A program made the position numbers and the translations under genes. Positions 2,140 to 8,610 of a stretch of 64,000 nucleotides of DNA are shown piece by piece. This DNA comes from Bradymonadia bacterium (GTDB lineage: Bacteria > Myxococcota_A > Bradymonadia > UBA7976 > UBA1532), in the NCBI GenBank assembly GCA_046290225.1, contig JBKAGE010000042.1, forward strand, positions 32,001-96,000. Reading direction: 5' to 3'. Positions within the stretch are counted from its first letter, which is position 1, and each line of letters opens with the position of its first letter. The notes beneath the pieces are model-generated. The model saw only the letters and a list, made by a program, of their open reading frames with translations. It made no database searches and was not told the DNA's origin.

Positions 2140-4413
2140 ATGCACCGGGCCAAAGCGACGAGCGGATGGGTGACGATGACCGCACCAGCACACCGGATAT
2201 CTTCAAAGATGATGCTCATGGCACTGTGGATGCCCATGCTGTACTTCGGCTGCAGCGAATCCACGCCCAAGAGCACATCGAAGACACCGCCCTCATCAGC
2301 CAGTTCGAAGACGCTCGCGCAGGCTGACGCGACCACATCTCAGCGCACCACCGTGCCCACCCTCGGCGCCTCGTCGGCGGACCAAGCCAGGGCCAAAGGC
2401 CCTGCAGAGCAGGCCTTCGTACAGCCACCTGGGGTCGAGGATTGCGAGGACTGCCATCCCGAGATCGTGGAGTCGTATCTCACCACGGGCATGGGCCGAT
2501 CGATGTACGCCCCTTCCAAGGCGAAGATCATCGAAGACTTCAGCCCCAAGGCCGCCACCATTCGACACGAGCACACAGGGCTCGAGTACCAGGCCTACGT
2601 CGACGATGCTGGGCGGTGGTGGCAAACCGAGCGCCTGCCGGGCACGGACTACAGCCGCACCCTGGAGGTGGCCTATGTCGTGGGATCAGGCAACCACACC
2701 CGAAGCTATCTCGGCTGGGCCGGTGGCCAGATGGTCGAGCTGCCTCTCACCTGGTACGCCAAACGCCGCATCTGGGACATGAGCCCGGGTTATGAGAAGC
2801 CCAACACGCTGCGTTTCACTCGGTGGGTTCGACCCGAATGCCTGTTCTGTCACAACGACGCCGCCCCGGCGAAGCGGGGCGCCCCTGCGGACTATCTGGG
2901 CAAAATCCCCGAAGGCATCACCTGCACACGATGCCATGGCGACGGCACCCGGCACATCGCCGCCCGAGAAGCGGGCGAGGTGCCTCCAGAGGGCAAACCC
3001 GATCCGCACATCGTCAACCCCAAGCACCTGAGCGAATCTCATCAGCTGCAGATCTGCCAGCAGTGCCACCTGCAGGGGGCTGCCCGCGTCCTCACCAGCA
3101 AGAAGGCCCTGCACGAGTACACCCCGGAGACCCCTCTCGAAGACTTCATGTCGATCTTCGAGGAAGCCCAGGCCGGCGGCAGCGCCTTCAGCATCGCCAG
3201 CCACGGTCACCGCCTGTCGTTGAGCGCCTGCGCTCAAGGGAGCGCTCAGGGTGACAAGCGCCTGGTCTGCACCACCTGCCATGATCCGCACCGCCCCTCG
3301 AACACCGCCAGCCACCGGGCGGCGTGCTTGAGCTGCCATACACCCAAAGACTGTGGCGAAGCGCACACCGCGGCTGATCCCGAAGCGAGCTGTGCGGGCT
3401 GTCACATGCGCAAGGGCGGCACCAGCGACATCCCTCACGTGAACTTCACCGATCACTTCATCCGCAAGAAGCCCTCTGCCGACGAGGCGCCGCCACAGTC
3501 CGACGGCACCCTCGCCGACGTCACCTCGGCCGACAAACGCGGCGAGAAGAACCCCCTCATCCTGGGGCTGGCCTACAGCCAACGCTGGCGACTGTTCGGT
3601 GAGCGCGACAAACGCCATCGGGCCCGCATGCTGTTGCTCGAAGCCGACAAAAAAGGGGAGGTCAACTTCGAGGGCCTGCACATGCTCGCCCTCACCAACT
3701 TCCCCAGCACCCCCTACTTCGAGCGGATGGATGCTCTTGAGGCCCAAGCGCGCTCTCCACATCCGTTCTGGCGCCTCGACTGGGCCGATCGACTCTTCAA
3801 GAGCGGAGACACGGAGCGCGCTCTGAAGGTGATGCAGCCCGGGCTGCAATACCCAAGCGTCACCGCCTTCGCCTGGCGCCGCTATGGCGACATGCTCAGC
3901 CGGCTTCAACGCTTCGACGAGGCTGATCAAGCCTACGAGAAAGCAGAGCAGATCGACCCCTACGAGAAGCTGCTCGCTCAGAACAGGGCCACCAACGCCA
4001 TGTCAGCGGGTCGAGTAGAAGAGGCGGAGAAGTGGCTCCGGCGCGCTGCAGAGCGCGACGGCCTGAACATCGACGTCAGGAGCTACCTCGGCGAGTTGCT
4101 GATCCAAAAAGAAGACCCGCAGCAACTGCTGAAACTCGCGCAGGAGATCAAGGCCGCACAAGCACAGGATCCACGCTGGCAGATTTTGCAGGCAGAGGGG
4201 CTGCGCCAGAAGGGAGACACCCAGGGCGCAATCAAGACCCTGGACAACATGCATCCGCAGCTGCGCAACGGGCGCTACTGGCTGGCCCGAGGTCGCACCC
4301 TCCGCGATGCCGGCGACATCAAGGCCGCCCGCGAGGCCGCCCAGCTGGGCATGCGTTTCGAGCCCGGCAACCCGGCGCTCATGCAACTGCAACAGAGCCT
4401 CTCGGGTCGCTGA
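2140..4413 (+). CDS. Multiheme c-type cytochrome with C-terminal TPR repeats, probable lipoprotein
   Basis: Seven CxxCH motifs (CEDCH, CLFCH, CTRCH, CQQCH, CTTCH, CLSCH, CAGCH), TDHFIR motif, TPR-like helices, lipobox-like YFGC; start uncertain (2140-2211). Confidence 0.8.
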
Positions 4414-4423
4414 TCACATCGCT

Positions 4424-5014
4424 CTACTCTGCAGCGAAAGGCTCAGCGAGGACCTCTTCGAATGAGGAGCACTCGTATTGATCAGTGGGGGGGTTGTCGA
4501 CGAAATCGAGGCACTCATCGCTGTCAGCCACCTCGGGGAAAGCCTGCTCGATGCGTCGGGTGACCCGCATGCCAGTCTCCGTGGCCTCTAGAATGGACTC
4601 AGTCTGAGTCACAGTGCACGAGGTGCCAGAGCCGCCCGCAGCCGTGGCCACGGTCACCCAAGCATCACCACGCTTCTCGAAGAAGGTCTCCGAGAAGCCG
4701 AATTCGTCCTCGCCTCTCTCGATCGGGCACGGATCACTTGCGTCACACGCCTCGAGCGTCTTGACGCTCTGGCCGAAGAACGACTCGCTCTTCAGAGAAA
4801 AGAACGGCCCTTCGACGACATAAGGGTGGCCGAATGAATCGTACGCCTCTACAGCCTGGGGGGTGTCGCACCCATTGAGGCTCAACGTGTGGTTGGTCAC
4901 CTCGAACACACCGTTGAAGGCGTCCGGGCCGCTCTCTTCATCATCGCAGCCCGTCGTCATCAACATGGCCATCGCCGCGATGGCGGTGGGGATCAAGGTG
5001 TCACGCAGCTTCAT
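4424..5014 (-). CDS. Hypothetical lipoprotein (paralog of 5135-5755)
   Basis: GAGGAG RBS, signal peptide ending TTGC, shared GVFEVxxHTL and DNPPxDQxxC motifs. Confidence 0.7.
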   Translation of the reverse strand: MKLRDTLIPTAIAAMAMLMTTGCDDEESGPDAFNGVFEVTNHTLSLNGCDTPQAVEAYDSFGHPYVVEGPFFSLKSESFFGQSVKTLEACDASDPCPIERGEDEFGFSETFFEKRGDAWVTVATAAGGSGTSCTVTQTESILEATETGMRVTRRIEQAFPEVADSDECLDFVDNPPTDQYECSSFEEVLAEPFAAE

Positions 5015-5134
5015 GTCATCTCCTCTGGGGTTGGATCCAGCGTCGTTTCGTGGCGCTGACGACGCACGACCACTGGTTTTATTCCCCAAAAACCGCGACA
5101 CCGATAGCCCATTCTGCTCCATGGAGCCCACGAC

Positions 5135-5755
5135 TCACTCTGTGGCGACAGGCTCAGCGAACACTTCCTCGGCAGCAATGCAGTTGAGCTGATCCACAGG
5201 CGGATTGTCCGCGATGGTGTAGCATGCATCGGCGTCTTCGACGTCTGGGAACATCTCCCCTACACGCTGGCTGATGCGAATGCCCGTGTCGGTGGGTTCG
5301 ATGATCGTCTCCGTATGCTGCACTTCACAGTCGAAAGCTGAGACAGCCTCTTCTCCAGCCTCGAGCCGGCTGCGCCTGTATCCAGAGCGTACAATGGTAG
5401 ACACCCACCCGTTTCCACGACGTTCGGTGAACACTCGTGAGTTGCTGAAATCATCATCACGGTTGTTCGATGAGCACGCATCGGCCGAGGGACAGTCCAT
5501 GAGAGCCTTTACGGTCACGCCAAACTCAGTCCTGGTGCTCAATGAAAAAAAGTCGGAGTACGTGATGTAATCGTACTCGCTCCGATCGAGCTCATATTCA
5601 TTGAAGGGCTGCAGCGCATCGCACCCGCTCGTGTCCAGGGTGTGGCTACTGACTTCGAAAACGCCACTCAACCCATCAGGTGATGCATCGTCGTCACCAC
5701 ACGCAGTGGCCATCAAGAGCACCAGGGAGGGCATCAATGCACGGTAGAAATTCAT
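5135..5755 (-). CDS. Hypothetical lipoprotein (paralog of 4424-5014)
   Basis: Signal peptide ending ATAC; same conserved Cys pattern as its neighbour. Confidence 0.7.
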   Translation of the reverse strand: MNFYRALMPSLVLLMATACGDDDASPDGLSGVFEVSSHTLDTSGCDALQPFNEYELDRSEYDYITYSDFFSLSTRTEFGVTVKALMDCPSADACSSNNRDDDFSNSRVFTERRGNGWVSTIVRSGYRRSRLEAGEEAVSAFDCEVQHTETIIEPTDTGIRISQRVGEMFPDVEDADACYTIADNPPVDQLNCIAAEEVFAEPVATE

Positions 5756-5882
5756 GTCTTCGCCTCTTCTCGGCAGCGTGCGACCACGATGCCAGTCTTC
5801 ATGGTCAAGTGATCGGTGATTCGAGTCGTGCACCCGATTTCTGACATGACCCCTCTCCAAATGTGCACATGCCTGGCATTGA

Positions 5883-5945
5883 GAGGTCCTCACAAAACAG
5901 CTCCCCTCACCTTCCTGACTTGGTCCGCCGTTGTGTTGGGGCCTC
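5883..5945. mobile_element. Internally deleted MITE (IS5-like TIRs)
   Basis: GAGGTCCTCACAAAAC...GTTGTGTTGGGGCCTC flanked by TGA/TGA; ends match the 159-bp copies at 9341 and 31597. Confidence 0.7.
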
Positions 5946-6049
5946 TGACGGCGACCTTTGTTTGGTAGCCCTCAACCTGCCCCCAAAGTTTTCTGTGAGA
6001 AAAAAACCAATAGAATTCAACGCTGTCATCAAAAAACGCTCACCATAGC

Positions 6050-6078
6050 TTGCATCAATACATACTCACTGTTAACGT
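6050..6078 (+). promoter_or_regulatory. Sigma70-like promoter of tRNA locus 1
   Basis: TTGCAT-N17-TAACGT after an A-rich upstream tract. Confidence 0.55.
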
Positions 6079-6123
6079 TCGCACGTCCAGAGAGACACAC
6101 CTCACCTATAAGGTTGGTTTACC

Positions 6124-6237
6124 GTGCAGTTCGTCGCCCACCATATGTGCATACCTCACCCCGTGATGCCTGGATGTCCAGGCCATCACCCACAGGTGAA
6201 TTGTATGTTGGCCCGGCCTATGCCGGGGCAGCGCTGA
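6124..6237 (+). CDS. Putative leader (attenuator) peptide rich in Met/Cys/Pro/His
   Basis: GTG start after TAAGGT (alternative in-frame ATG at 6145): (M)QFVAHHMCIPHPVMPGCPGHHPQVNCMLARPMPGQR; composition matches the downstream tRNA-Cys, -Met and -Pro. Confidence 0.65.
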   Translation: MQFVAHHMCIPHPVMPGCPGHHPQVNCMLARPMPGQR

Positions 6238-6279
6238 CGACACCGGTTGCGCCTTGCGCCCCGGGGTACCACCGGGGTT
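6212..6279 (+). promoter_or_regulatory. Putative attenuator (alternative hairpins)
   Basis: CCCGGC(6212-17)/GCCGGG(6222-27); CCGGGGC(6223-29)/GCCCCGG(6258-64); GCCCCGG/CCGGGGT(6272-78); U-tract is weak. Confidence 0.5.
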
Positions 6280-6537
6280 AAACCTTGAAAAAACAAACAC
6301 ATTCAAGGTCTACACATATCCCCCTAGAGATCCCGAAGACGCATGCCCGGTTTCACCGCGCTCCCCGATCTCGGACGCTGTTCGAGCGCAGGCCCGGTCA
6401 ACTCGACTGACCACCTGATCTCGAACCTGTCGTGAGGTGCGATGGGTGACGGCAGTCATCCATCGCATCAAGTGTATCGTTTCTGCCCATGGCAGAGGCA
6501 AGACACCGCAACTATAACCAATAGACACAACTATTTT

Positions 6538-6608
6538 GATGCGTTCCATCCGGCGATGGCGTGAGATTGCAACCCTCACTGTGCTGGGTTCGACCCCCAG
6601 ACGCATCT
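6538..6608 (+). tRNA. tRNA-Cys(GCA), atypical short D-loop
   Basis: Acceptor GATGCGT/ACGCATC, U73 discriminator, D-arm CATC-CGGC-GATG, loop TT-GCA-AC, T-arm CTGGG-TTCGACC-CCCAG. Confidence 0.8.
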
Positions 6609-6650
6609 CAATGCACAGCGCACACTGAAGCATGTGTGCTGAGGAGAGAC

Positions 6651-7568
6651 ATGAAACCGTTCGTATTCGACATGGAGACGGGGGATCCCGACGACTTCCT
6701 GACGTTGGCGCTGCTGGCGGGCCACCCCGAGGTGGATTTACGCGGCGTGACCATCACACCGGGTACACCTCACCAGGTGGGGCTCGTTCGCTGGTTTTTG
6801 GATCATGTGGATCTGGGCCACCTGCCTGTAGGCGCTTTCGACATCGACCACATGTCGAGGCGCTCAGGGCAGTACGAGAAGTGCGTGTCCGCCTGGCACT
6901 ATCGCACCTTCGGTGAGATCTCCCCGAGCCATGATGCCGAGACTGGATCTGCGGTGCTGGAGAGCGTCGGTCCCAATGTGGATCTCGTCACGGGGGCTGC
7001 GCTCAAGAACCTGGGCCGCTTTTACAGGCTGAATGACACCTCCTGGCCGGGCCCCCTGACGATTCAGGGCGGCTTTGCTGGAGACAATGTGGTGCCTCCA
7101 GAGCTGCGGCTGGAAAAGTTCGACGGCCGGCTGACCTGCCCGACGTTCAACCTCAATGGCGACGTGGCATCGGCCAGGCTGGTTTTCGAACGGGCAGGGG
7201 CTCATCCGACCCGCATGGTCTCGAAGAATGTGTGCCATGGCGTGATCTACGACCAGCACATGCACGATGAGCTTCGTGCCATGGCCGAGGCATCGGGCGG
7301 CCCTCACCTGGGCATGCAGTGGGTGTTCCGAGGCATGGAGTCGTATCTCTCGCGCCGCCCGGAGGGGAAGAAGTTCCACGATCCGCTGGCGGCCATGTGC
7401 GCCCTGCGGCCGGAGATCGGCACCTGGGTGCGGGGGATGCCCTACCGGGTCGAAGGGGGCCACTGGTCTGGTGAATGGGGGTTCGAGCCAGATCCTGAAG
7501 GCCCGGTGGAGATCATCATCGATTACGACCGTGAGCTGTTCCTCGAAACCATGTTGGGGATCGGCTGA
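6651..7568 (+). CDS. Inosine/uridine-preferring nucleoside hydrolase family protein
   Basis: DMETGDPDD N-terminal Asp cluster, TFNLNGD, HDPLAA motifs; GAGGAG RBS. Confidence 0.85.
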   Translation: MKPFVFDMETGDPDDFLTLALLAGHPEVDLRGVTITPGTPHQVGLVRWFLDHVDLGHLPVGAFDIDHMSRRSGQYEKCVSAWHYRTFGEISPSHDAETGSAVLESVGPNVDLVTGAALKNLGRFYRLNDTSWPGPLTIQGGFAGDNVVPPELRLEKFDGRLTCPTFNLNGDVASARLVFERAGAHPTRMVSKNVCHGVIYDQHMHDELRAMAEASGGPHLGMQWVFRGMESYLSRRPEGKKFHDPLAAMCALRPEIGTWVRGMPYRVEGGHWSGEWGFEPDPEGPVEIIIDYDRELFLETMLGIG

Positions 7569-7586
7569 CGCTCAGCAGCGTCATAT

Positions 7587-7655
7587 CGCAACGCGCACAG
7601 GGGGCCGGTGAGTTTCATACGCTCAGCCGAGCAGGTTCGAGTCCTGCCGTTGCGA
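7587..7655 (+). tRNA. tRNA-Met(CAT)-like with degenerate D-arm
   Basis: Acceptor CGCAACG/CGTTGCG+A, anticodon arm TGAGT-TTCATAC-GCTCA, T-arm GCAGG-TTCGAGT-CCTGC; Met versus lysidine-Ile identity not resolved. Confidence 0.65.
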
Positions 7656-7722
7656 CCTCGGGCCCAGGCAGAAGGGCGGGTGCAGAGGATGGCCCGCCCC
7701 AACTTCGCCATGGGTCCATCAA

Positions 7723-7796
7723 CGGAGTGTAGCTCAGTCTGGTAGAGCAGCACGCTGGGGGCGTGAAGGTCGCAGGTTCAAATCCTGCCACTCCGA
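7723..7796 (+). tRNA. tRNA-Pro(GGG)
   Basis: CGGAGTG/CACTCCG acceptor, canonical D- and T-arms, loop CT-GGG-GG. Confidence 0.9.
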
Positions 7797-8030
7797 CAGT
7801 GTTTTTTCAGAGCCTGCCCTTCGGGCGCTTCTGCGCTCCTACGCCCTACGGGCTCCGTCGGCTCCGAAGCGTCCGGCCTTAGGCCGGACAGGCTCGCGGG
7901 CTTACGCCCGCTGTTCTCTCTTGGGGTTTCTGTGGAGTTTGCCTTTGGGCGCTCCTATGGCCCTGTCGACTCTGAAGTGTTCGGCCTTAGGCCGGACAGG
8001 CTCGCGGGCTGGCGCCCGCCGTTCTTTCTC
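7797..8030. repeat. tRNA-associated structured repeat, dimer (one intact and one degenerate unit)
   Basis: CAGTGTTTTT..GAGCCTGCCCTTCGGGCGCTTC...GAAGCGTCCGGCC-TTA-GGCCGGACAGGCTC; homologous to 60005-60333 and 61019-61266. Confidence 0.85.
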
Positions 8031-8049
8031 GACTCAATGCACGCATCTG

Positions 8050-8610
8050 TCAACGCGACAGCTTTCCAGCCCAGTTGGCGAAGCCGGCCATGTACTTCAC
8101 GAGCCGATCGTGCACCTGCTCGTCAGTGAGCACGCCGTCCGTGAACTTCGACCCTGCATTGCCCACCATGAACTCCGGCCAGGGGAACACCGCCGCCGCC
8201 ATCCCCAGCAGAATCGTCTTCATATGTTGTTGACCGCGGGCCCCACCCACTGGGCTGCCTGTCACCGAGAGCACGCCCACCGGCGTGTCGCGAAAGGGCG
8301 AGTGGTAGGCTGGGCGGCTCGCCCAGTCGACCGCGTTCTTGAGCACCCCCGGCACGCTGTAGTTGTACTCCGGCACCGCCAGCAACACCCCATCCGCTTC
8401 TGTGATCGCGCGCTTCAAACGCAACACGCTCTCTGGCACCTCGGGCAGGTCATCGTCGTAGAGCGGTATGTCGCGGTAATTGTAGATCTCCACCTTCACC
8501 CCCTCGGGGGCCACAGTCTGCGCGGCGCGCAGCAGAGCAGTGTTGAGGCTGGCGGCGCGAAAAGAGCCCGACAAGGCCAGGATCTTCAGGTCGGATTTGG
8601 GGGCAGACAT
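8050..8610 (-). CDS. NADPH-dependent FMN reductase (ChrR/YieF-like)
   Basis: GSFRAASLN and PEYNYSVPGVLKNAVDW motifs. Confidence 0.9.
   Translation of the reverse strand: MSAPKSDLKILALSGSFRAASLNTALLRAAQTVAPEGVKVEIYNYRDIPLYDDDLPEVPESVLRLKRAITEADGVLLAVPEYNYSVPGVLKNAVDWASRPAYHSPFRDTPVGVLSVTGSPVGGARGQQHMKTILLGMAAAVFPWPEFMVGNAGSKFTDGVLTDEQVHDRLVKYMAGFANWAGKLSR

Follow-up and report, generated by a model that had tools for sequence, protein, structure and literature searches.

A Candidate Ribosome-Sensed Leader Ahead of Spare Cys, Met-like, and Pro tRNA Genes in a Bradymonadia Bacterium

The stretch of DNA analyzed here, referred to as the window, is 64,000 nucleotides long and corresponds to positions 32001-96000 of one contig (C42) from the genome of a Bradymonadia bacterium (denoted G000; 8.58 Mb in 83 contigs). 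Positions 6050-7797 of the window are proposed to carry a leader that is sensed by the translating ribosome and that gates a set of spare transfer RNA (tRNA) genes for cysteine (Cys), methionine (Met), and proline (Pro). We regard this reading as probable, though by some distance short of secure. Support for it comes from a rare match between the codons of a short leader open reading frame (ORF) and the anticodons of the tRNA genes that follow, from a design shared with other units of the same genome, and above all from the place of this locus among six complementary units. The five sibling units are very probably functional ribosome-sensed leaders. The Cys/Met/Pro locus is the weakest of the six because it has no U-tract, a candidate promoter that fits only 6 of 12 consensus positions, ordinary stabilities for two of its three alternative RNA pairings, deviant tRNAs, and no orthologue among the genomes searched.

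The leader ORF was found where the original prediction had placed it (Table 1), and the 30 residues that begin with the internal ATG at 6145 include 4 Met, 3 Cys, and 7 Pro, the 14 of 30 that had been claimed, together with 3 His. The Pro codons in this segment are CCT (three), CCC (one), CCA (two), and CCG (one). All three anticodons of the unit are represented among the codons of the leader, and together they can read 11 of the 36 codons past the GTG start or 10 of the 29 past the internal ATG. The combined content of Met, Cys, and Pro was attained by 18 of the 20016 ATG-first ORFs of 25-45 amino acids in the whole genome. At the codon level, where only codons readable by the anticodons were counted and the best ORF and start were taken for each segment of 600 nucleotides (nt), the score of the leader was attained by 8 of 2000 random genome segments. 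Comparison with shuffled sequence, a check proposed together with the original prediction, showed the match to be similarly rare, with 5 of 3000 dinucleotide shuffles of 6085-6537 reaching the observed value at the codon level and 3 of 3000 at the amino-acid level. A Shine-Dalgarno-like motif precedes the GTG start, and no such motif was found ahead of the ATG at 6145. The leader would presumably be translated while the hairpin region is being transcribed.

The genome contains 96 tRNA genes by ARAGORN and about 90 above threshold by Rfam. Five other genomes of the same family hold 33-47 tRNA matches, and 58 were counted in a comparison genome from another genus of the family (denoted G023); the extra tRNA set is considered sporadic because the five other family genomes hold so few. 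The surplus tRNA genes of G000 form small arrays sorted by amino acid, in units of 1-10 genes. The 600 nt upstream of all 48 tRNA unit starts were scored against the anticodons of each unit. The units of contigs C20 and C37 and the minus-strand unit of C42, all of them extra arrays, were recovered at p ≤ 0.003. The Cys/Met/Pro unit, scored here on Cys and Pro only, gave 0.037, the C79 unit gave 0.089, one housekeeping gene gave 0.034, and the rest gave 0.07 or more. The search for further small tRNA operons that had been suggested at the outset yielded four more units, for a total of six including the two in the window (Table 1). Almost all of the anticodons of each array are sampled by its leader, and the apparent gaps are mostly an artefact of the wobble table. 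A TTGAC promoter, a Shine-Dalgarno sequence, and a hairpin with a T-run are found in C20, C37, the minus-strand unit of C42, and C77.

Five upstream regions were also scored against five codon sets in a 5 × 5 matrix. Of the 120 possible permutations, the true pairing of leaders with arrays ranked first, and the Cys/Met/Pro codon set and the upstream region of the Cys/Met/Pro unit were reciprocal best matches. The five other leader units and a leaderless Asn-His unit (C44) account for 17 amino acids, and a second leaderless unit, an array on C34, adds Pro. The Cys/Met/Pro unit is the sole source of spare Cys and Met-like genes and also provides the spare Pro(GGG); across the six leader units and the two leaderless units the extra tRNA set spans all 20 amino acids. 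The two leaderless units have in common the motif TGGCAC-N5-CTGCT, located about 130 nt before tRNA-Asn (41225 of C44) and about 55-70 nt before position 374632 of C34, which resembles a sigma-54 promoter.

These results bear on the possibility that the ORF and the hairpins arose by chance in intergenic DNA that is rich in GC and in hairpins, and that the hydrolase and tRNA genes are expressed constitutively from one or more promoters of their own. We hold this to be unlikely. The frequencies among random segments (8 of 2000) and among shuffles (5 of 3000) already allow for the choice of ORF, and the amino acids enriched in the leader are exactly those left uncovered by the other five leader units. 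Chance would also have to account for the best-ranking assignment of leaders to arrays and for the housekeeping tRNA clusters, none of which has an ORF of this kind.

The claim that the leaders are written in the codons of their own downstream tRNAs, now extended to six units, is further upheld by the comparison with G023. The G023 homologue of the Asp/Glu/Phe/Gln unit is 77% identical in DNA sequence across the leader and terminator, and its array consists of Asp, Glu, Arg(GCG), Arg(CCG), Phe, Gln(TTG), and Glu. The homologous leaders are both 32 codons in length and share 19 of 32 residues. Seven Arg codons (five CGY and two CGG) are found in the leader from G023 versus one in that from G000, and G023 has Arg codons at each of the three positions where the leader from G000 has CAG; the G023 array is without Gln(CTG). 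The comparison shows that leader codons change along with array content between the two genera. Elsewhere in G023, a four-Leu array follows a leader with a run of eight codons of which seven are Leu, and two Ser tRNAs follow an 18-nt tandem repeat that codes for 18 Ser in 39 codons. Since this tandem repeat itself forms the Ser-rich leader, the leaders may grow through repeat expansion, as the arrangement suggests. In the same genome, the stretch between the terminator and the first tRNA of a Pro array is filled by about 15 tandem copies of a 13-nt repeat.

A covariance model (R1) was constructed from eight sibling sites of G000 and G023, with the Cys/Met/Pro leader deliberately excluded. The model recovered all eight training sites at 44.7-81.6 bits and identified one new site in each genome, at C34:31128-31226 of G000 (38.1 bits, E 3.3e-7) and at C77:32016-32110 of G023 (27.8 bits, E 3.2e-4). 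Both new sites have a TTGAC promoter, a short ORF of mixed composition, and a T-run terminator, and RNA ligase genes (PF09414, E 8.2e-21 and 1.8e-10) are found about 130-170 nt downstream. The short ORFs at these sites contain many different amino acids and favor no subset. One attenuator type is thus predicted to gate both the spare tRNAs and the RNA ligases. In the siblings, the sequence GAGGGG in the last leader codons copies the 3' arm of the terminator and is able to pair with the 5' arm, CCCCTC. In constrained folds with the ribosome at the stop codon the terminator was obtained in the siblings. With the ribosome stalled in mid-leader, C37 and C79 gave the antiterminator, as did the minus-strand unit of C42 at one of the three positions modeled.

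The Cys/Met/Pro leader has this same family feature, a late copy of the terminator 3' arm, as CCGGGG (6223-6228, duplicating 6272-6277) rather than GAGGGG, and an additional strand 1 completes the four-strand arrangement of classical attenuators. The overlapping 1:2, 2:3, and 3:4 pairings that had been described after the leader were located within 6207-6278 and are mutually exclusive. The 1:2 hairpin lies at the 3' end of the leader ORF and also appears in the full fold. A further strong hairpin lies inside the leader ORF (6163-6189) and pairs Val-Met-Pro-Gly codons with Pro-Gly-His-His codons; this fold is in keeping with the earlier suggestion that the His codons are the complement of ATG and GTG codons, and the hairpin may serve as a pause or coupling hairpin. 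The predicted promoter hexamers are present and are 17 bases apart. Upstream of them, a block of T-runs and A-runs aligns with similar blocks ahead of the -35 elements of the siblings and may act as an UP-like element.

Table 1. Features of the Cys/Met/Pro unit, of the sibling unit in the window, and of the six leader units of the genome
Feature	Position	Strand	Remarks
T-run/A-run block	5988-6008	+	upstream of candidate promoter; aligns with blocks ahead of the siblings' -35
Candidate promoter TTGCAT-N17-TAACGT	6050-6055 and 6073-6078	+	TG two bases ahead of second hexamer
Shine-Dalgarno-like AAGG	6110-6113	+	10 nt ahead of GTG 6124; sequence read
Leader ORF	6124-6237	+	GTG start, 37 codons, then TGA; internal ATG at 6145
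Hairpin within leader ORF	6163-6189	+	-17.3 kcal/mol, z -4.4; 0 of 200 shuffles fold as well
Hairpin 1:2	6207-6232	+	-19.9 kcal/mol, z -3.2
Pairing 2:3, candidate antiterminator	6220-6267	+	-24.7 kcal/mol, z -1.2
Hairpin 3:4, candidate terminator	6258-6278	+	-14.7 kcal/mol, z -0.9
A/U-rich hairpin	6282-6309	+	8 pairs, no U-tract; -7.7 kcal/mol, z -3.2
tRNA-Cys(GCA), non-canonical	6538-6609	+	ARAGORN default call
Nucleoside hydrolase gene, inosine-uridine type	6651-7568	+	PF01156, E 5.5e-14; between tRNA genes
tRNA-Met(CAT)-like gene	7587-7657	+	ARAGORN only at relaxed threshold
tRNA-Pro(GGG), canonical, spare lineage	7723-7797	+	ARAGORN; Rfam 64.5 bits
GC-rich dispersed repeat, about 100 nt	7791-7911	+	terminator-like hairpin 7896-7911; partial second copy 7959-8019
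Sibling array Asp, Glu, Phe, Gln, Asp, Glu, Gln	60366-61501	-	ARAGORN
Sibling terminator with T-run	61716-61672	-	sequence and fold
Sibling leader	61841-61743	-	32 codons; 17 of 31 cognate to Asp/Glu/Phe/Gln
Sibling unit in window	61672-61936	-	TTGACA (61936-61931), N17, second hexamer (61913-61908)
Leader unit, Arg/Lys/Val/Ile tRNAs	C20		19 of 34 leader codons cognate; 2 of 2000 null segments as good
Leader unit, Leu/Ser/Tyr/Thr tRNAs	C37		20 of 34 leader codons cognate; 3 of 2000 null segments as good
Leader unit, Ala/Gly/Thr tRNAs	C79		21 of 58 leader codons cognate; 185 of 2000 null segments as good
Leader unit, Asp/Glu/Phe/Gln tRNAs	C42	-	17 of 31 leader codons cognate; 0 of 2000 null segments as good
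Leader unit, spare tRNA-Trp	C77		2 of 25 leader codons cognate; TGG TGG adjacent
Leader unit, Cys/Met-like/Pro tRNAs	C42	+	11 of 36 leader codons cognate; 8 of 2000 null segments as good

In the mechanism that we propose, 6050-7797 would form a single transcription unit of an accessory second tRNA set, and a ribosome would translate the leader while RNA polymerase transcribes the hairpins behind it. With ample cognate charged tRNAs the ribosome would reach the stop codon and cover strand 2 (6220-6234), hairpin 3:4 would form, and most transcripts would end or be lost before the tRNA genes. If decoding were slow, above all at the Cys-Met codon pair (6202-6207), the ribosome would stall over strand 1, strand 2 would stay available for pairing with strand 3, and transcription would proceed into tRNA-Cys, the hydrolase gene, the Met-like gene, and tRNA-Pro(GGG). 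The unit would then replenish just those tRNAs whose scarcity its leader measures. In the modeled folds the Cys-Met pair appears to be the only position suited to a classical release of strand 2 by a stalled ribosome. Both termination at 6278 and this position-specific stalling logic are things that we infer from the layout of the pairings.

A number of observations weigh against the proposed switch. Each hexamer of the candidate promoter fits 3 of 6 consensus positions, and MAFFT places another weak hexamer (6016-6021) under the TTGACA of the siblings, so that the homology of the -35 element is ambiguous. A scan for consensus promoters and terminators called no promoter at 6050-6078 and no terminator at 6258-6278, a scan that is uninformative here since it also misses the evident promoter and terminator of the sibling at 61672-61936. 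The stabilities of the 2:3 and 3:4 pairings (z -1.2 and -0.9) are within the range of the shuffles. The poor U-tract, conceded as a weakness from the beginning, was borne out: the tail behind hairpin 3:4 contains 4 U in 10 bases and no usable U-tract. The 260 nt between the hairpins and tRNA-Cys leave room for another promoter. In constrained folds, stalls at codons 17 and 23 keep hairpins 1:2 and 3:4, and most of the Met, Cys, and Pro codons (6145-6183) are too far upstream for a stall to free strand 2. Among the siblings, the terminator prevails in all minimum-energy folds of C20. The original interpretation stands in part, namely in the general idea of leaders matched in codons to the tRNAs downstream of them. 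At this locus the overlapping pairings and the two spaced hexamers exist; the U-tract, a 3:4 hairpin more stable than shuffled sequence, and a strong promoter or a scan call for it do not, and attenuation itself is only inferred.

The codon match has its own difficulties. If the Met-like gene is not a tRNA and is left uncounted, the p value for the Cys/Met/Pro leader is the 0.037 given above for Cys and Pro alone. Three of the seven Pro codons (CCA and CCG) cannot be read by the GGG anticodon, and the whole leader contains five His codons in a unit without tRNA-His; the single inverted repeat at 6163-6189 accounts for part of the Met, Pro, and His content. The leader of C79 matches its array poorly (185 of 2000 null segments as good), and the leader of the G023 Pro array has just 4 Pro in 28 codons, 2 of them cognate. 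The tRNA-Cys has no Rfam tRNA match even at E ≤ 10, and the Met-like gene scores 25.1 bits, under the gathering score of 29 for RF00005. Searches of 27 further family genomes gave no orthologue of either gene. Model R1 gave no match to the Cys/Met/Pro leader at E ≤ 1 in a genome-wide search, and its best score with the filters off was 1.2 bits. The leader therefore appears to be analogous in design to the R1 family and to lie outside it as a sequence family, with no paralogous relationship, in agreement with the original statement that it has no evident sequence similarity to the leader at 61743. The weak promoter, the missing U-tract, the ordinary 2:3 and 3:4 pairings, the inverted repeat, the value of 0.037, the failure of R1, and the lack of an orthologue to show conservation are what an accidental arrangement would be expected to display, and they are the reason that chance retains some weight.

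Some of the same observations would also be explained if the leader were sensed without intrinsic termination, through Rho-dependent polarity, polymerase pausing, or RNA processing, or if the locus were a decaying relic of a classical attenuator. The codon bias and the Shine-Dalgarno-like site are present while the features of a terminator are missing, the promoter is weaker than those of the siblings, and the tRNAs of this unit are the most deviant of the spare set. The long spacer at 6310-6537 is C-rich and weakly structured. We consider this explanation distinctly unlikely. The overlap of the 1:2, 2:3, and 3:4 pairings would be superfluous under non-classical control, and the perfect 7-bp acceptor stem and T-arm of the tRNA-Cys are hard to square with decay.

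The genes behind the leader were found in the order that had been described, namely, tRNA-Cys, nucleoside hydrolase, tRNA-Met(CAT)-like, and tRNA-Pro(GGG), with the Met-like gene being marginal. In addition to its intact acceptor stem and T-arm, the tRNA-Cys has discriminator U, a short D-loop, and an A-C mismatch that closes the anticodon stem, and it is 60% identical to the housekeeping tRNA-Cys. The Met-like gene has a weak D-arm, a 4-bp T-stem, a C1-G72 pair, and discriminator A, and its identity to the three other CAT tRNAs is at most 63%. Conceivably, it could read the leader's only ATA codon in the manner of a lysidine-type tRNA-Ile. The tRNA-Pro(GGG) shares 91% of its sequence with the spare Pro(TGG) of C34 and 87% with the spare Pro(CGG) of that contig, compared with 81% for the housekeeping Pro(GGG). 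Identity among the three spare Pro isoacceptors is 87-91%, against 74-81% to their housekeeping counterparts, and they appear to be a lineage of their own. The spare and housekeeping sets also diverge widely in their anticodon stems and loops. An unusual tRNA-Asp, both copies of which in G000 are missed by Rfam, retains 23 of 23 base pairs relative to G023, and at two of them both bases have changed in a compensatory manner. Judging by the separate Pro lineage and by these preserved tRNA-Asp pairs, the spare set looks functional. Under the proposed reading the odd Cys and Met-like tRNAs would also be charged and used.

The hydrolase (6651-7568) scores 52.9 bits over its full length against PF01156, for which the gathering score is 34.2, and no NCBIfam equivalog was obtained (17.4 bits versus a cut-off of 450). 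One conceivable role for the enzyme is the salvage of modified nucleosides. Its closest homologues are myxobacterial and are 43-48% identical, and two of these, from Myxococcus eversor AB053B and Myxococcus sp. AM401, are followed by long tRNA arrays of mixed content. The presence of this enzyme raises two related possibilities, that the leader encodes a functional small peptide rich in Cys, His, Met, and Pro, for example for metal binding, or that the leader serves mainly the hydrolase with the tRNAs as passengers. Ten of the 30 residues are Cys, His, or Met, the unit contains no protein gene other than that of the hydrolase, and the two Myxococcus genomes show that its homologues can stand beside tRNA arrays. 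We nevertheless find these explanations very improbable. They leave unexplained the five sibling leaders that differ in composition and yet match their arrays. DNA searches gave no homologue of the leader stretch, and a 107-amino-acid ORF in another frame (5958-6281, plus strand) has no Pfam match, the leader peptide itself not being part of that search. In M. eversor the hydrolase gene sits upstream, not downstream, of a candidate leader. The locus in strain AB053B (2501-5413 of the retrieved stretch) consists of the hydrolase gene followed by a mixed array with 18 tRNAs within the flank; between the two are a Shine-Dalgarno sequence and a 52-codon ORF that contains all 20 amino acids, then a hairpin with a T-rich tail.

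With a ribosome-sensed leader for spare tRNAs as the preferred reading, a broader scheme can be outlined, which we put forward as tentative and rather doubtful in its full extent. Six codon-matched operons and two leaderless units would constitute a complete stand-by decoding set for all 20 amino acids, and with the ligases added they would make up a regulon for tRNA damage, in which every leader gauges the decoding rate of its own codons. Of the two leaderless units, one would certainly be extra and the other would be an extra Asn-His copy, and the Cys/Met/Pro unit would be the member that completes the set. Loss of particular tRNAs, for example to the anticodon nucleases of competitors, prey, or phages, would induce only the matching unit, and replacement tRNAs that are structurally deviant, and perhaps resistant to the nucleases, would be made along with a ligase for repair. 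Across the genome, the observations point to a coordinated reaction to the loss of tRNAs rather than to amino-acid starvation; they comprise the six matched units, the leader that differs together with its array in G023, and the occurrence of the same attenuator type ahead of the RNA ligases.

Further searches were made for relatives of these elements. In 40 relatives, no orthologue of the Cys/Met/Pro unit was found, the only matches being to generic tRNA-Pro and, faintly, to the hydrolase; in phage and plasmid records the unit returned tRNA-Pro matches only. The exact pattern of the odd tRNA-Asp was found in 0 stretches of the metagenome contigs, and the sibling-leader alignment gave no confirmed match in metagenome or viral contigs. 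Among 400 sampled genomes of the phylum, the odd tRNA-Asp gave one match (genome G339) in a search of low sensitivity that scored 2 candidates per genome. This match lies in a long mixed array, where no leader of the G000 style was seen. The mixed array on contig C114 of G339 contains 17 tRNAs and lies directly 3' of a gene that by eye resembles RtcB. A cmscan of 5850-8100 at E ≤ 5 returned only the tRNA-Pro and three chance matches, with no Rfam leader family and no T-box.

Several additional features of tRNA genes and their surroundings were noted. In three Pro-type tRNA genes at C34:374632-375950 the anticodon loop is enlarged by an insertion of 35-42 nt around a conserved motif, a size of tRNA insertion that is unusual in bacteria. 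Two further copies of the motif occur outside tRNAs nearby, and there is no other exact copy in the genome. A tRNA with a CTA anticodon at C14:27995-28067 (65.1 bits; labeled Pyl by ARAGORN) would read the amber stop codon. A fragment resembling the 3' half of a tRNA (19 bits) is located at 59973-60021 of the window, on the minus strand at the far end of the Asp/Glu/Phe/Gln array and past the repeats there. The GC-rich, hairpin-forming repeat of about 100 nt that follows tRNA-Pro(GGG) trails several spare tRNA genes, is also found at 60000-60210 and 61017-61129 of the window, and has at least 15 copies in the genome, not all of them beside tRNAs.

The closest known systems are the leader-peptide attenuators, such as trpL, hisL, leuL, thrL, ilvL, pheL, and that of pheST. 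Some of these, including those of thr and ilv, monitor several amino acids. The units described here resemble these attenuators in having a promoter, a short codon-enriched ORF, predicted hairpins that exclude one another, and a candidate stop signal ahead of the genes under control, and the Trp unit of C77 has tandem Trp codons as the classical attenuators do. They differ in what is regulated, since classical attenuators control biosynthetic enzymes or synthetases whereas those of G000 would control tRNA genes and, among the siblings, RNA ligase genes as well. They differ also in that the codon match goes anticodon by anticodon and, at the Cys/Met/Pro locus, in the lack of a U-tract. The untranslated RNA of the siblings folds as the antiterminator, so that they, in contrast to trp, would be induced by an overall arrest of translation as well. 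T-box riboswitches bind a tRNA directly, with neither ribosome nor ORF, and one T-box reads one tRNA. The likeness is that the supply of specific charged tRNAs is sensed and an antiterminator is switched ahead of genes of the translation apparatus, and the difference is that the leaders of G000 would sample up to nine anticodons.

Two reports on extra tRNA genes are also relevant. In Anabaena PCC 7120 supernumerary tRNA genes are, according to the available text, silent by default, induced when translation is impaired, and co-regulated with rtcB, and direct repeats over the -10 box of the long array (the L-array) are probably a repressor site (PMC8421152). The words "leader" and "attenuat" are absent from the portion of that article at hand. 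The two systems are alike in that extra tRNAs are linked to an RNA ligase, which is rtcB there and the PF09414 genes behind the same attenuator type here, and they differ in that the Anabaena array is long and mixed with up to 43 genes, while the Cys/Met/Pro unit has three tRNA genes. Phage tRNAs have been proposed, in the accessible part of a second report, as replacements for host tRNAs cut by anticodon nucleases (PMC10264068). They too would be a second, divergent tRNA set able to sustain translation after tRNA depletion; they are phage-borne and no sensing leader is described in that part of the report, whereas the set in G000 is chromosomal and belongs to a large myxobacterial genome. A third article contains only a passing mention of a tRNA operon (PMC3082878).

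No account of leader-peptide control of tRNA genes was found in the literature searched, subscription journals being outside the search. If the proposal is correct, the speed of decoding would feed back directly on the expression of tRNA genes, and the leaders could serve as ready-made, codon-specific sensors of translation speed. The proposal offers a testable answer to the questions of what extra tRNA arrays are for, how they are silenced, and how they are switched on. Control of tRNA genes by a ribosome-sensed leader is best read as a new variation on classical attenuation, in which the textbook attenuation of amino-acid biosynthesis appears to have been turned on the supply of tRNA itself.

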